A stretch of 41,946 nt of DNA from a virus (Duplodnaviria; Heunggongvirae; Uroviricota; Caudoviricetes): the IMG/VR virus record IMGVR_UViG_3300001242_000012, one strand, 5' to 3'. The translations under genes were made by a program, and so were the position numbers. Shown piece after piece: positions 3,410-16,551 of the stretch. How positions within the stretch are numbered: position 1 is the stretch's first letter; every line of letters begins with the position of its first letter. The notes beneath the pieces are model-generated. The model worked only from the letters and a program-made list of their open reading frames with translations, ran no database searches and was not told where the DNA came from.

Positions 3410-3482
3410 TGGATGGCACGGTAAGAGTCGAACTTACGTCACCAGCTTGTGGGCCGGAGCTCTACCATTAAGCTACATGCCA
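3410..3482 (-). tRNA. tRNA-like RNA with a 6-nt anticodon loop (CCACAA), U73 and encoded CCA
   Basis: Acceptor UGGCAUG/CGUGCCA, canonical D and T arms, stem CCGGC/GCUGG. Confidence 0.75.
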
Positions 3483-7152: not shown

Positions 7153-8769
7153 TTAATATCTGTTTATAGTTTCAAGCACATTAGTGTTGTTGACTTCGCA
7201 TGTTTTAACGAAGTCAAAGATCTTTTCTGACCAACCAGCTATCCTATATACGTTAGGTTCATCCATAGGTACCGGTGTAGTACCATATGAAGATAAATCA
7301 ATAGTATATAGTTTGATATCTGGATTTATTGTTCTCCTATAGTCTTTCAGTAAATCAGCTAATGCCTTTCTGCTGCCACCACCATAACCCCAAGCAGTAA
7401 CACCATAGCATTGTTCGTCAGAGAAGATGAAGATTCTATCCGCAAAGGTTTTCTTCTTCAGTAGCTCTTCGACTACACGGTAAGCATTTGTAGACATACC
7501 TTTGGTATCTGCCCTAGCTATCCTATTCATGTTAGTGAATATGGAGTCAGCCGGATTAAGGTTAACAGGGCACCAATCAGTACCGAAAGCACCTACTATA
7601 GAAGACTCACAGAAACCATGAGCCATAGCACATAGTAAATTAGCAATGTTGGCACATGATACCTTGCTTCTTTCTGATACAGCTTGTGACATAGAACCAG
7701 AATTATCAGCTGCAAGCAGTGTTATACCTTCAAGCATAGGGACATTCTGTACACTTATACTAATGGCCTCAGATAATGCTGCAAGTACTTTAGATATATT
7801 AGGATTAGTACCAATTAAGCTTTCCATTTCACGATAAGCACTATAAAATCTAAATGGAAGCTGCTTAGATCTAAGAACTTGATTAGGGTCCTTCAATCTC
7901 TCAATGACACTACCTATACATTTAGCATCAGCATTAATGATGTTCCTTATATTACGGAGCATAGCCATGAAAGGTAAGTTAAGTTCATCCCATACTTCAG
8001 GCTTGTTACCAAACTTACTTACAGCCATCTCCCAGGTCATATCACCAGCCCTAATAAGATGTCTAGCTTCTTCGAAGTTATCTATCTTAGCAAACTCTTT
8101 ATGAGCTTTGTGCAGCACCATAACGTCATCGTTCTCTATATCATGACACATATACTTAAAGATAGCATCGTGCAGTACATCACTTGGTTTAGCACGACAT
8201 ACTCTGATTACATCTTTAATCTTAACTGATTTACTCCTGTCATACTTTAAGAAATGATACTCACCGAAAGTATTCAATACATCGGAGATACCTTTCTTAA
8301 GTGAGTTAGGGAAGGCATGAGTGCCACCTGCTTGACCTTTATCACCTATGTCACCATGTTTACTAACCCAGTAAGCAACTAGTTCAGCAGGTTCATCAGC
8401 ACGCTTTAATATACGAGGAACCCATTTACGAACGAATGGCTTACACTCATTGATTGCTGCAGCTTCACCCAGTAGTACTATAGGTATAGATCTTAAGTAC
8501 ATTTCATTTCTAGCATAAGCAGCTAGCTTTAAGATAAACTCAGGATCTATAGCTGCTACTTGCTTAATGTCTCTGATAATACCAGCAAGAGTTTCAGTGT
8601 TTTTCTGGTAGTAAGTATCAGACAGTAAGCAGTTACATACTTTCTTATACAGTCTAGTTTTAGCATCCATTTCGAAAGCTACACCACCTGCGAGGTTCTT
8701 AATTACATCAGGTCTGTTGACCACACTAGCCAATCTACTGGCAGAATTAAATTTAGACATTAGTGTCAC
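7153..8769 (-). CDS. rsr: Ro60/TROVE-domain RNA-binding protein with C-terminal vWA domain
   Basis: N...GG.AF, DPEFILKLA.YAR....LRS, PFMAMLRNIRN, SKQLPFRFYSAY, DNSGSM (MIDAS), IFSDEQ, IAGWSEKIFDF. Confidence 0.95.
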   Translation of the reverse strand: MTLMSKFNSASRLASVVNRPDVIKNLAGGVAFEMDAKTRLYKKVCNCLLSDTYYQKNTETLAGIIRDIKQVAAIDPEFILKLAAYARNEMYLRSIPIVLLGEAAAINECKPFVRKWVPRILKRADEPAELVAYWVSKHGDIGDKGQAGGTHAFPNSLKKGISDVLNTFGEYHFLKYDRSKSVKIKDVIRVCRAKPSDVLHDAIFKYMCHDIENDDVMVLHKAHKEFAKIDNFEEARHLIRAGDMTWEMAVSKFGNKPEVWDELNLPFMAMLRNIRNIINADAKCIGSVIERLKDPNQVLRSKQLPFRFYSAYREMESLIGTNPNISKVLAALSEAISISVQNVPMLEGITLLAADNSGSMSQAVSERSKVSCANIANLLCAMAHGFCESSIVGAFGTDWCPVNLNPADSIFTNMNRIARADTKGMSTNAYRVVEELLKKKTFADRIFIFSDEQCYGVTAWGYGGGSRKALADLLKDYRRTINPDIKLYTIDLSSYGTTPVPMDEPNVYRIAGWSEKIFDFVKTCEVNNTNVLETINRY

Positions 8770-8784
8770 TCCTTATAATTTGAT

Positions 8785-8871
8785 ATGAGAGAATAAATGA
8801 ATAGGGTAATTTGATGTTTCAATAAGATACTAATTTGTATATATGAAGTAACCCTATCCTACACTACTCAT
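8785..8871 (-). ncRNA. Y RNA-like unit B (short)
   Basis: AUGAG/CUCAU outer stem with the conserved motifs. Confidence 0.7.
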
Positions 8872-8879
8872 AAATTTGT

Positions 8880-9017
8880 ATGGGAGAATAATCACATAGA
8901 GTAGCTTTTAGTGCTCTAACCAACTGAGCTACAGAACCTTTTGATGAGGCCCTGGTAGGACTCGAACCTACGACCACTCGATTACAATTCGATGAAACTC
9001 TATGCTACACTACCCAT
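8880..9017 (-). ncRNA. YrlA-type Y RNA unit C (circularly permuted tRNA module)
   Basis: T arm GUAGG-UUCGAGU-CCUAC precedes a loop-closed acceptor stem, then D arm UAGCUCAGUUGGUUAGAGC. Confidence 0.85.
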
Positions 9018-9024
9018 AATATTG

Positions 9025-9162
9025 TATCAGGAAGAATTGTTCGTTAAGAGTACATAGTGCTCTACCAGCTGAGCTACGGAGCTATCAGTTGCTCTGATGG
9101 GACTCGAACCCATGACCACTCTATTAAATGTAGAAGTAACTCTTAACTACACTGTCCTGATA
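9025..9162 (-). ncRNA. YrlA-type Y RNA unit D
   Basis: T arm AUGGG-UUCGAGU-CCCAU, closed acceptor stem, D arm UAGCUCAGCUGGUAGAGC. Confidence 0.85.
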
Positions 9163-9170
9163 ATAAGCTT

Positions 9171-9311
9171 AGATTAGGAAGAATAAGCTATAAGGGTACA
9201 TTACGTTGCCTTGACTACTTGGCTAACCCACTATGGTTGTGGGTGAGAGATTTGCACTCCCGATCACGGCTGAAGATGCGAAGTAACCCATTATATACAC
9301 TATCCTAATCT
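9171..9311 (-). ncRNA. YrlA-type Y RNA unit E
   Basis: T loop UGCAAAU, ACCCAC/GUGGGU closed acceptor stem, D arm UAGCCAAGUAGUCAAGGC. Confidence 0.8.
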
Positions 9312-9319
9312 TAAAATTG

Positions 9320-9459
9320 TTAGGGAGAATTAAGCGATAAGAGACTATCTAAACCAGTGCCTTGGACCGCTTGGCTAACCCGTGATAGCCACGGGTGGAG
9401 GATTTGAACCTCCGGATGCTGGTGCCCTATTGAAGTAACTCTTATCTACACTACCCTAA
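9320..9459 (-). ncRNA. YrlA-type Y RNA unit F
   Basis: GGAGG-UUCAAAU-CCUCC, ACCCGUG-GCUAU-CACGGGU, D arm UAGCCAAGCGGUCCAAGGC, CUGGU/ACCAG stem. Confidence 0.88.
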
Positions 9460-9467
9460 TAGTTTGC

Positions 9468-9534
9468 GATAGGAGAATAATTAATAGTAGGGTGGCACTT
9501 TTATCAGAAGTAACCCTACATCACACTACCTATC
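9468..9534 (-). ncRNA. Y RNA-like unit G (short)
   Basis: GAUAGG/CCUAUC outer stem with the conserved motifs. Confidence 0.7.
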
Positions 9535-9541
9535 AATATTT

Positions 9542-9625
9542 TAATGAGAGAATAATTGGACAGAGAGCTTTGTATATAAATAAGAAGTTTATTTTTGAAG
9601 TAACTCTGCCCTACACTGCTCATTA
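9542..9625 (-). ncRNA. Y RNA-like unit H (short)
   Basis: UAAUGAG/CUCAUUA outer stem with the conserved motifs. Confidence 0.7.
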
Positions 9626-9769
9626 ATTACGTTGTGCTGGTGGTGCTCCTGGTCTAGAACTTACAGGAGCAGAATTGAGTCCTTGCTTTCTGACTCTACC
9701 CTGTGTAAGTAGAGCTTTATTAGGTTTAATACTATCATGTTTGAATAGATTTAACAACCATTTAAGCAT
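9623..9769 (-). CDS. small basic protein, 48 aa (MLKWLLNLFK...RPGAPPAQRN)
   Basis: Manual translation; AAGGAUGGU RBS-like sequence. Confidence 0.55.
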   Translation of the reverse strand: MLKWLLNLFKHDSIKPNKALLTQGRVRKQGLNSAPVSSRPGAPPAQRN

Positions 9770-9956: not shown

Positions 9957-9965
9957 AAATTAAAC

Positions 9966-10054
9966 TGGCGACCGGGTGAGGATTTGTACCTCACTTCTAG
10001 TATATACTCTCCCAACTGATATATGTCGCTGCAGTTCGATTTGATATACCCGGT
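9966..10054 (-). ncRNA. degenerate tRNA-like element
   Basis: ACCGGG/CCCGGU, T arm UGAGG-UACAAAU-CCUCA, GCCA end; no D or anticodon arm recognisable. Confidence 0.5.
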
Positions 10055-10143
10055 AAAAGTATACTCTAAGCATTTTTGTTATAAGTTACTTATTGCGCTA
10101 ATAGGGCTTATAACAAAAACCATAGGTGATTGTTTTAACTTGA

Positions 10144-10362
10144 TTAAACTACCGGCCTTATAACTGTTTTGAATAGGCAGGATTCAAACCTGCTTGGTCC
10201 GGAATACGGTTCAGCTACCTTCGGTTTATCACGCCGATGCTGTACCCTATCGTATCTTATATGTTTTGGTAACTTGACATCCTTACTCTTGGCCTTCGGT
10301 TCAGGACTTCTTATATCTCTGCATATAGTAACTTTAGGTGTTCTCACCACGCCGCTATTCAA
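10144..10362 (-). CDS. basic hypothetical protein
   Basis: ORF track. Confidence 0.5.
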   Translation of the reverse strand: MNSGVVRTPKVTICRDIRSPEPKAKSKDVKLPKHIRYDRVQHRRDKPKVAEPYSGPSRFESCLFKTVIRPVV

Positions 10363-10462: not shown

Positions 10463-10539
10463 TGGTGCACCATGAAGGACTTGAACCTTCAACCTACCGA
10501 TTAAGAGTCGGTTGCTCTAGCCAATTGAGCTAATGGTGC
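10463..10539 (-). tRNA. tRNA-Lys(CUU)
   Basis: Loop CUCUUAA, ACCA end. Confidence 0.93.
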
Positions 10540-10542
10540 ATG

Positions 10543-10748
10543 TAAGCGGGTAAGGATTTGCACCTTACATGTCATCAGGAGCTTATCCCTGATGGTCTAG
10601 CTGTTTTTACCTCTAGACAAGGATCTATGAACTCAATAGCTATCTAGAATTACTATATAGCGTCTACTATTGCCCTAAGAAAGGTATGCATCCCTTTTGG
10701 AAAACAGGCTTTACCACCGATTAAGGTGTCTATTCTCGCCACCGCTTA
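10543..10748 (-). ncRNA. 206-nt expanded tRNA-Leu-like RNA
   Basis: UAAGCGG/CCGCUUA, T arm GUAAGG-UGCAAAU-CCUUAC, long variable-arm-like hairpin, large inserts. Confidence 0.65.
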
Positions 10749-10753
10749 TTTAC

Positions 10754-10829
10754 TGGAGCCTCCTACAGGACTTGAACCCGTAACCCACTCCTTACAAAGG
10801 AGTCACTCTACCAATTGAGTTAAGGAGGC
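10754..10829 (-). tRNA. tRNA-Thr(UGU)
   Basis: Loop UUUGUAA, UCCA end. Confidence 0.93.
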
Positions 10830-11259: not shown

Positions 11260-11425
11260 TGGTGCACCTGGCCGGTATCGAACCGGCTCTCGTTTCCTAA
11301 GCATAAGATCAAGGATTACGCGCTTCCTTACTCAACTTCACCGAGCGGTTTTTCAGTGCCTCTGCAACCTTATCTCTGCAACCAGTCTCCGTTTTACTGT
11401 GCTCTTTCCATTGAGCTACAGGTGC
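11260..11425 (-). ncRNA. 166-nt tRNA-like RNA with the anticodon arm replaced by a 112-nt segment
   Basis: GCACCUG/CAGGUGC plus ACCA, D arm GCUC-AAUGGAAA-GAGC, T arm GCCGG-UUCGAUA-CCGGC. Confidence 0.8.
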
Positions 11426-15772: not shown

Positions 15773-16072
15773 TTACATTACCATCTCTTCGAACCTAGTC
15801 TTAACTTTCTCGTTAGCAGCCCTAGAACTTTCAAGATTAACTACCAGATCATTAAGATCAGTAATCTGAGACCTAGCAACTACAATTCTGCTATCAATCT
15901 TGCTGTTGATTTTATTAATCTTAGTGACAATGCGCTTGAAGATATTCAGTTGGTTCTCAACCTTACGATCAAAATCCCTGAGATCCTCATTCAAATCCCT
16001 AATGATTGTCTCTGTATGAGACTTAATCCTTCTATTCCTCCACCATGCTAATAAACCAAACAAAACTATCAT
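15773..16072 (-). CDS. membrane-anchored coiled-coil protein
   Basis: ORF with GGGGAG RBS. Confidence 0.65.
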   Translation of the reverse strand: MIVLFGLLAWWRNRRIKSHTETIIRDLNEDLRDFDRKVENQLNIFKRIVTKINKINSKIDSRIVVARSQITDLNDLVVNLESSRAANEKVKTRFEEMVM

Positions 16073-16155
16073 CTCCCCTATTTAATTTTCGGAGGTGAAG
16101 GAAGGATAGGTAGTCTATAGCCTACACTAACCCAACTTCACCAATTTATTATGAC

Positions 16156-16252
16156 GTCTAAGGAATCGAACCTCTAAGATTTGGCACCAGCCACCTTTAG
16201 ATTTTATCTCTCGGTTAACGGATTCGAACCGTTACTATGCTACCAGCAACAT
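16156..16252 (-). ncRNA. two tandem mini D-loop/T-loop hairpin pairs
   Basis: A GCUGGU-loop hairpin followed by a GGUUCGA(A/U)UCC hairpin, twice. Confidence 0.45.
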
Positions 16253-16551
16253 CATAAATTTATTTCATCATCAAGTATATGGCGCAAACCTTTCCCTCCG
16301 ATCAATATCGTTCTATCTAATTTCGGAGAGCAAACTATATAACATATTTTACAAGGATGCTCCTTCTTCATTCCTTTAGCTAATACATAACAGACTGTTC
16401 CATTAGGAATATTAGTATCCTTGTCATTAACAGTATGGTCATAGAAATCTATCACTGCATTCGGATAACCTAATTCTCCAGCTAAAGTATGGTGGTAAGG
16501 ATACCTTTCGCCATTATCTTTGATTATAACAAGTTGATCTATCTGATACAT
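16252..16551 (-). CDS. DQIV-family protein
   Basis: YQIDQLVII. Confidence 0.7.
   Translation of the reverse strand: MYQIDQLVIIKDNGERYPYHHTLAGELGYPNAVIDFYDHTVNDKDTNIPNGTVCYVLAKGMKKEHPCKICYIVCSPKLDRTILIGGKGLRHILDDEINL

Follow-up and report, generated by a model that had tools for sequence, protein, structure and literature searches.

A phage RNA with a tRNA-Leu shell and two inserts belongs to a large, uncatalogued viral RNA family

Stable RNAs without an assigned function have been known from the tRNA clusters of phages since the 1970s, such as species 1 and 2 of T4 and RNA1 and RNA2 of T5. In the laboratory, engineered tRNA scaffolds carry a foreign RNA at the anticodon-arm position of a tRNA frame and are processed and stabilized like tRNA. 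Here we describe a 206-nucleotide (nt) element in the tRNA cluster of a Caudoviricetes virus (IMG/VR record IMGVR_UViG_3300001242_000012). It lies on the minus strand at 10543–10748 of the analysed stretch of 41,946 nt (the window), which is the reverse strand of bases 34248–76193 in the 244,052-base virus record. It belongs, as a member with two inserts, to a large family of tRNA-Leu-shell RNAs that is uncatalogued and derived from class-II tRNA-Leu.

The element is embedded in a tRNA operon. All genes between ~2.5 and 19 kb of the window are on the minus strand, and ARAGORN called 14 tRNAs within this block and none elsewhere in the genome. Within 4 kb of the element there is no terminator-like site, and among 69 family members only 3 are followed by a terminator. 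The spacers are only 5 nt to tRNA-Thr(UGU) (10754–10829) and 3 nt to tRNA-Lys(CUU) (10463–10539), in agreement with an earlier reading of the letters alone (the sequence-only reading), which had the element nearly filling this gap. That reading had left two alternatives, an intron-containing or processed tRNA and a stable tRNA-shelled noncoding RNA. The conserved shell and module described below favour the latter, and the former is not supported, given the absence of an anticodon arm and of any ARAGORN or Rfam call.

A viral RNA family with a tRNA-Leu shell

The T arm of the element is almost identical to that of a neighbouring tRNA-like element, element C (9965–10158). We thus scanned IMG/VR with a 22-nt pattern common to both, comprising the T arm and the first bases of the acceptor 3' strand, and found it in at least 115 viral contigs. 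Upstream of nearly every match stands NNNNCGG-UGGCGGAAUAGGUAGACGC, corresponding to the complementary acceptor strand and, after it, a D arm of the leucine type. Between the halves of this shell lie 45 to ~200 nt of contig-specific sequence. Alignment of 21 short members, two cultured phages included, revealed that the three shell helices are 99.7% paired. Compensatory or both-side changes occur in 9 of the 16 shell pairs, a level reached by none of 500 shuffles and approached by no slid register. Across these members, five of the seven acceptor pairs show compensatory changes, and the middle pair of the D stem covaries (CG, AU, UA). The A and U preceding the T stem are invariant in alignment A2, and CAU or UAU is found in all 35 members that bear the D-loop module described below. 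In the module-bearing members, the T stem varies at five of its six pairs without loss of pairing, the loop-closing G-C alone being invariant; since the outermost pair is among the variable ones, the sixth pair of this stem is real.

Two covariance models were built, the E-values of which are rough. R1 represents the short members and aligned only the T arm of the element (27.1 bits, E = 4e-5). Given that R1 cannot align across the two large inserts, R2 was built for the 5' domain from module-bearing members of 10 other phages, with the element left out. A covariance search for homologues had been proposed in the sequence-only reading; with R2, the element gave a full-length alignment at 10660–10748 (53.5 bits, E = 1.2e-12), and this is the sole convincing match in the window and in the 244-kb genome. 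A weak second match at 16018–16049, inside a 99-amino-acid (aa) open reading frame (ORF), was attributed to chance.

The R2 alignment, combined with predicted folds, enabled us to assign the parts of the element as follows, where RNA position p equals window coordinate 10749 minus p.

10742–10748, minus strand: acceptor stem 5' strand UAAGCGG, forming seven Watson-Crick pairs with 10543–10549
10729–10741, minus strand: U8, D-stem 5' strand GCG and D-loop 5' half A-GAAUAGA, from the R2 alignment
10715–10728, minus strand: helix a of the D-loop module, CACC-UUAAUC-GGUG, from the R2 alignment; same position in 35 distinct members
10710–10714, minus strand: module linker GUAAA (the GGUAAA motif with its preceding G), invariant in alignment A3
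10672–10709, minus strand: helix b of the module, an extended 38-nt hairpin with GCCU/GGGC as closing stem; it agrees with the family in location and closing pairs
10660–10671, minus strand: D-loop 3' half and D-stem 3' strand AAUAGUAGACGC, an invariant block in A3 and in the R2 alignment
10574–10659, minus strand: 86-nt cargo body where a tRNA has its anticodon and variable arms, from minimum free energy (MFE) and centroid folds
~10641–10659, minus strand: predicted cargo stub hairpin directly 3' of the D stem and stacked on it, with a 21-nt linker to the next hairpin
10596–10617, minus strand: predicted cargo hairpin UCUAG/CUAGA with a 12-nt loop
10574–10593, minus strand: predicted cargo hairpin AUCAGGG/UCCUGAU
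10569–10573, minus strand: junction GACAU, ending in the family YAU (U being the position-48 equivalent); its A and U are invariant in A2
10550–10568, minus strand: T arm with 6-bp stem GUAAGG/CCUUAC and loop UGCAAAU, G at position 55; R1 match
10543–10549, minus strand: acceptor stem 3' strand CCGCUUA, from the sequence, followed by CAU and then tRNA-Lys

The sequence-only reading had correctly picked out the 7-bp acceptor stem, the 6-bp T stem, the variable-arm-like hairpin AUCAGG/CCUGAU and the anticodon-like stem UCUAG/CUAGA with its 12-nt loop, all of which are present at these positions. Its Leu-type D-arm pieces, UGGCGAGAAU (p8–17) and AGUAGACGC (p81–89), placed ~60 nt apart, have 63 nt between them, and the ~40 nt preceding the anticodon-like stem measure 42 nt from the second piece. 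The absence of an encoded CCA also holds, CAU following the acceptor strand instead.

In the family, the 7-bp acceptor stem is followed directly by U and GGCGGAAUAG..GUAGACGC, which form a 3-bp D stem; in the element this part reads UAAGCGG-U-GGCG(A)GAAUAG..AGUAGACGC. The 3' part consists of YAU, a 6-bp T stem, the loop UGCAAAU and a gapless acceptor 3' strand, seen here as ..CAU-GUAAGG-UGCAAAU-CCUUAC-CCGCUUA. Between the D stem and YAU the sequence is variable and devoid of an anticodon arm with a 5-bp stem and 7-nt loop, a place taken by the 86-nt body in the element. CCA is not encoded and is absent from the 12 commonest 3-nt tails of 71 members, of which 45 have A and 26 another base at the discriminator position; that of the element is C. 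All 16 shell pairs are intact in the element, and it keeps the parts of the class-II L-shaped core, namely the acceptor stem, U8, the D stem and loop with the A14, A15 and GG equivalents, U48 and the T arm. The 5' 33 nt of a member share 88%–90% identity with annotated cyanophage tRNA-Leu genes.

The D loop of some members is split as in the element, in the order GGCGGAAUAGA, helix a, GGUAAA, helix b and AAUAGUAGACGC. The pattern of this subgroup is AAUAGA-[helix a]-GGUAAA-[helix b]-AAUAG-UAGAC, to which the element conforms with consensus linkers. A search for the D-loop module without the T arm retrieved 49 viral contigs, from which 35 distinct complete elements were obtained; both helices covary among them, including the outer pairs of helix a. 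Among the 39 elements recovered via this T-arm-free pattern, 38 have the T loop UGCAAAU. In the element, the D-loop 5' half has one additional A after GGCG relative to the family consensus GGCGGAAUAGA, and the fifth pair of helix b is an unpaired G-A; the closing pairs of both module helices are intact. Judged by this sequence comparison, the first "insertion" is a conserved structured module rather than a removable spacer. The sequence-only reading had named the loss of both shell and inserts among homologues as a finding that would speak against it; homologues in fact keep the shell and the first-insert architecture, with compensatory changes.

The family thus has two insertion sites, the D loop and the anticodon/variable-arm position, and the element uses both, its 86-nt cargo body occupying the hypervariable one. 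One cargo helix shows a compensatory change among four near-identical members. In another member (L078:404–565, minus strand, IMG/VR contig 3300028833_001372), ARAGORN found a complete tRNA-Thr(GGU) nested in the cargo site. The conserved D-loop module and the covarying cargo helix suggest that the inserts are more than filler.

The predicted MFE of the element is -61.5 kcal/mol (z = -2.7 against shuffles), with a fold that includes the listed helices. As the z-score is only -2.7 and that of the opposite strand comes close to it (-2.5), folding energy alone proves little; it is homology, as seen in the model matches, that sets the element beyond chance.

Rfam 15 gave no match at the element, either with gathering scores or at E up to 10, and the family elements of ten further loci were likewise without a match when E values of up to 1 were allowed. 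A literature search, which included the T-loop motif string and whose coverage left aside the 2023 catalogue of viral structured RNAs (PMC10690425), found no description of the family.

In total, members occur in more than 150 viral contigs. A strict pattern, applied to one genome each of 185,579 prokaryote species, gave 24 matches, mostly in Bacillota (Leuconostoc, Weissella, Bacillaceae and Clostridia metagenome-assembled genomes). Given 24 prokaryote matches against more than 150 viral contigs, the distribution fits a phage or prophage element. Cultured carriers, each inspected by eye, include Leuconostoc phage LN34 and its relatives, in which the D stem GAG/CUC covaries with the usual GCG/CGC, and Bacillus phage KLEB27-1, with the T stem ACGAGG/CCUCGU. 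A third is Bacillus phage phi3T (KY030782, ~50190–50325, minus strand, equal to L198:1201–1335, plus strand), the member of which spans ~133 nt downstream of a yonN-like gene and has the T stem GGGAGG/CCUCCC with the loop UGCAAAU. The start of the hypothetical coding sequence phi3T_57 falls within this member, which points to an annotation error. A 4-kb query centred on the 206-nt element matched cultured phages only in tRNAs.

Around the members, tRNAs lie within 1.5 kb in 45 of 115 loci, always on the same strand, and in other loci the member neighbours genes for a large terminase or a portal protein, which belong to several unrelated types. Clusters of ORFs near members are lineage-specific only (terminase, portal, BRO-N).

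Relation to decoding and chargeable tRNAs

ARAGORN, with introns of 0–300 nt allowed, made no call at the element, and among 79 distinct members, also with introns allowed, it found no shell-spanning tRNA except for one low-quality intron call. The Rfam tRNA family RF00005 (gathering score 29 bits) had no match over 10543–10748 even with E relaxed to 10. An anticodon arm, with its 5-bp stem and 7-nt loop, is missing from the element and from all 24 short members inspected, and no 7-nt loop of the U33 type occurs in the 86-nt body of the element.

These results bear on the idea of an interrupted gene, in which removal of the two inserts would yield a decoding tRNA-Leu otherwise missing from the phage. 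Indeed, tRNA-Leu is not among the 14 tRNAs of this genome, despite its Leu-derived shell RNA; joining the D-arm halves would restore a D arm of the Leu type, and the final hairpin looks like a long variable arm. However, the only candidate anticodon stem bears a 12-nt loop, and the 24 short members, which have no additional insert, are likewise without an anticodon arm. The inserts of ~60 and ~40 nt are below the size of group I or II introns, no Rfam intron family matched, and no tRNA was called when introns were allowed. Moreover, removing the inserts leaves no anticodon arm, and the non-canonical T loop is unlike that of any matched tRNA-Leu. A bulge-helix-bulge motif was not found, no dedicated search having been aimed at it. 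A split or intron-bearing tRNA was rejected because the D-loop insert is itself a conserved, covarying structure. We consider an interrupted tRNA-Leu gene hardly credible.

Two other known RNA types were rejected. The element has normal tRNA topology, no Ro-binding stem and no match to RF02553, and is thus not a YrlA-type Y RNA. Neither ARAGORN nor Rfam (RF00023) detected a transfer-messenger RNA, and the third acceptor pair is A3-U70 rather than the G3:U70 of the tRNA-Ala-like ends of such RNAs, which also have pseudoknots and a tag reading frame with a resume codon.

For bacterial leucyl-tRNA synthetase (LeuRS), identity depends on A73 and a core of U8-A14, G18-U55 and G19-C56, of which A73, G18-U55 and G19-C56 are critical, and A73C costs 48-fold, whereas the anticodon arm is dispensable, its entire deletion causing a 2.5-fold loss of tRNA affinity (PMC2377443). 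An RNA without an anticodon arm might therefore still be leucylated by the host LeuRS after CCA addition and serve a non-ribosomal role or perturb LeuRS. The family keeps U8, the A14 and GG equivalents and C56, and since 45 of the 71 members have A as their discriminator, some of them may still be charged. For the element itself, charging appears unlikely from its letters, given C73, G rather than U at position 55, no encoded CCA and an insert of ~60 nt beside the D-loop G residues. Furthermore, 26 of the 71 members are without A73, and all normal tRNAs of this phage encode CCA. A charged but non-decoding RNA is thus an improbable explanation.

Proposed role and genomic setting

The element is probably a functional RNA gene, encoding a stable, non-decoding, tRNA-shaped handle that displays phage-specific domains and acts as an adapter, carrier or decoy. 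Its processing, stability, partner and cellular role are what we infer in the following putative model. Initially, a single precursor transcript would span tRNA-Thr, the element and tRNA-Lys. Cleavage by RNase P would then generate two 5' ends, that of the element and, 3 nt beyond the element's 3' end, that of tRNA-Lys, after which the 3' end of the element would be trimmed. The freed RNA would fold into an L-shaped tRNA-like core that confers protection and stability. Finally, without decoding and probably without leucylation, it would have its invariant elbow recognized and would present the inserts at the elbow and at the anticodon position.

The T loops of the normal tRNAs of this phage are of the UUC type and varied, whereas UGCAAAU is fixed in the family, which argues that the elbow is held tighter than tRNA folding requires. 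Elbow positions left unconstrained in ordinary tRNAs are invariant in the family; together with the 13-bp stack of acceptor and T stems, this points to a specific partner of the shell. As the inserts look more than filler, an adapter or carrier is favoured over a pure decoy. We tentatively envisage the elbow (UGCAAAU plus the GGAAUAG..GUAGAC D loop and the 13-bp stack) as a docking handle for one conserved partner, and the inserts as effector or target-binding modules. Such a phage "adapter RNA" system might, for example, tether or block host RNA-decay or defence nucleases and, combined with the Ro60 protein, Y RNAs and tRNA mimics of the same region, form one RNA-centred counter-defence or RNA-metabolism locus.

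Alternatively, the shell itself may be the active part, titrating or blocking a host factor that binds tRNA bodies, and the inserts would mainly bar translation. Candidate targets are an acceptor- or elbow-directed defence nuclease or toxin, a tRNA-modifying or quality-control enzyme and RNA-decay nucleases. Such a decoy or sponge would be consistent with the T loop fixed in 38 of 39 members, with the hypervariable body and with the presence of other tRNA mimics and a Ro60 gene in the same phage. As a precedent in concept only, from a different RNA family, a phage anti-CRISPR engages host nucleases via tRNA and tmRNA fragments (PMC11662646). On the other hand, a pure decoy would need neither large stably folded inserts nor a covarying D-loop module and, with no anticodon loop, could not lure anticodon nucleases. 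We regard a decoy as possible but doubtful.

Several observations weigh against a processed handle with a conserved partner. Processing by RNase P and at the 3' end is assumed; the acceptor/T stack of the element is 13 bp long, compared with 12 bp in ordinary tRNAs, and its first nucleotide is U rather than G. Exact-pattern scans supplied the family samples, so that the invariance of the pattern bases is partly by construction. Clustering of ORFs within 3.5 kb of 115 members revealed no common protein partner. Gaps of at most 30 nt to tRNAs were seen in only one upstream and four downstream cases among 79 elements, and signs of tRNA-type excision across the family are weak. Terminators are not enriched after members, an absence that is uninformative for excision. 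Finally, blastn and nhmmer searches with the 86-nt body and the helix-b interior against ~190 fetched loci found no homologue, so the folds of these two parts come from energy prediction. A pattern specific to the element's own copy had no match in IMG/VR viral contigs.

The absence of a homologue of the body and the modest z-score of the whole-sequence fold would also suit a functionless tRNA-Leu pseudogene or recombination scar. Such decay would nevertheless have left all 16 shell pairs and the module-helix closing pairs intact, together with a full-length match to a model trained on distant phages, and it does not account for a family that, in more than 150 contigs, shows compensatory changes as well as loops that are invariant. 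A decaying relic is thus very unlikely, and a functional, non-decoding RNA remains our preferred reading.

The surroundings of the element contain further tRNA-like features and a Ro60/Y-RNA locus:

11260–11425, minus strand: element D, 166 nt, with a perfect acceptor stem, D arm, T arm and encoded CCA, and ~90 nt replacing the anticodon region
10170–10361, minus strand: element B, 192 nt, 22 nt after tRNA-Pro, with the 7-bp closing stem UGAAUAG/CUAUUCA and the T arm GCAGG-UUUGAAU-CCUGC
9965–10158, minus strand: element C, ~190 nt, with the T arm GUGAGG-UACAAAU-CCUCAC followed by CCGGUC-G-CCA (CCA encoded)
~8790–9640, minus strand: tandem Y-RNA-like array preceding the Ro60 gene, about seven to eight units with a repeated stem motif
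7153–8769, minus strand: Ro60/Rsr orthologue, 538 aa, with TROVE (1.4e-33) and the Ro60 vWA domain
3410–3482, minus strand: tRNA of undetermined type called by ARAGORN, 73 nt, with an abnormal anticodon loop ("anticodon" ac, two bases)

Element C may be closed by a 6-bp stem, GGCCGG, and contains a GUUU/AAAC hairpin resembling a D arm, with no Leu-type D loop; R1 aligned a shorter form at 9969–10056 (23 bits, E = 5e-4), and its boundaries are uncertain. Element B encloses ~150 nt of other sequence, folds with z = -1.2 and had no homologue in the fetched loci. With introns allowed, ARAGORN read element D as tRNA-Ile(UAU) with an 86-nt intron. Global alignments of B, C and D with the element were not above shuffles (z from -0.5 to 2.6), and the three were rejected as its paralogues. 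B and D matched neither R1 nor R2 and were rejected as family members; a family-type T arm is found in C only.

The Y-RNA array and the Ro60 gene lie 1–3 kb downstream of the element. Four units of the array contain circularly permuted tRNA-like modules, and the Rfam YrlA model gave a sub-threshold match at 9041–9146 (39 bits). One permuted module (~9245–9261, minus strand) has the T loop UGCAAAU on the stem GGGAG/CUCUC; given this loop, G55 may be a mark common to the non-decoding tRNA mimics of this phage. Four Ro60-related viral loci are distant, with 29%–34% identity, and were left aside in the comparisons.

Other candidates were seen farther away. At 16140–16260 (minus strand), just upstream of an ORF of 99 aa, two short hairpins have T-arm-like loops, ..GGUUCGAAUCC.. 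and ..GGUUCGAUUCC.., with no full tRNA around them. Outside the window, a finder for a 7-bp closing stem plus T arm gave oversized tRNA-like candidates of 259 and 134 nt at genome positions C1:2555–2813 and C1:3696–3829 (plus strand), and R1 had a weak match at C1:3530–3644 (E = 0.2).

Comparison with known systems

The element ties one oddity of a tRNA cluster to a very large and sharply defined family, with a diagnostic signature made up of G55 in the T loop, a T stem of 6 bp and a D loop of the Leu type. Since standard tools miss them, members go unannotated or are overlaid by spurious ORFs. Members are present in tractable laboratory phages (phi3T and the Leuconostoc LN34 group), which makes their function directly testable. 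If the elbow is a partner handle, the family may represent a new class of modular phage regulatory or counter-defence RNA and a natural precedent for tRNA-scaffold RNA expression.

Compared with class-II tRNA-Leu (RF00005), the element has in common the 7-bp acceptor stem, U8, the 3-bp D stem, a loop of the GGAAUAGGUAGAC type, the U48 equivalent and the T arm. It differs in having neither an anticodon arm nor an encoded CCA, in its T loop UGCAAAU (G55) versus UUCRANY, and in its 6-bp T stem, 13-bp coaxial stack and two inserts. The RNA1 and RNA2 of T5 and species 1 and 2 of T4 (rnaC and rnaD) are its closest described counterparts, being small stable RNAs encoded among phage tRNAs whose ends, but not interior, are tRNA-like. 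In particular, the D arm of T5 RNA1 (NC_005859, 30501–30644), GCCGGAAUUGGUAGACGG, is of the Leu type and its body measures ~85 nt, the annotation being "tRNA-like stable RNA with unknown functions"; its T loop, however, is canonical (UUCAACU), its T stem has 5 bp, and it has no D-loop module. T4 species 1 shares the T arm alone with the family and has neither the 6-bp T stem nor the D-loop module. None of these T5 and T4 RNAs has the UGCAAAU loop, and the comparison is one of build, with homology to the family not established.

YrlA-type Y RNAs (RF02553; Chen et al. 2014, PMC4201824) are likewise non-decoding mimics of the tRNA core that combine a constant handle with a variable module. They are, however, circularly permuted, with ends forming the Ro60-binding stem and a loop-closed acceptor stem, and in other phages the family described here has no linkage to Ro60. 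The build of the element is also reminiscent of the engineered tRNA scaffolds; those are a laboratory design, whereas this is a natural, conserved family whose elbow is dedicated and non-canonical and whose D loop offers a second site for inserts.

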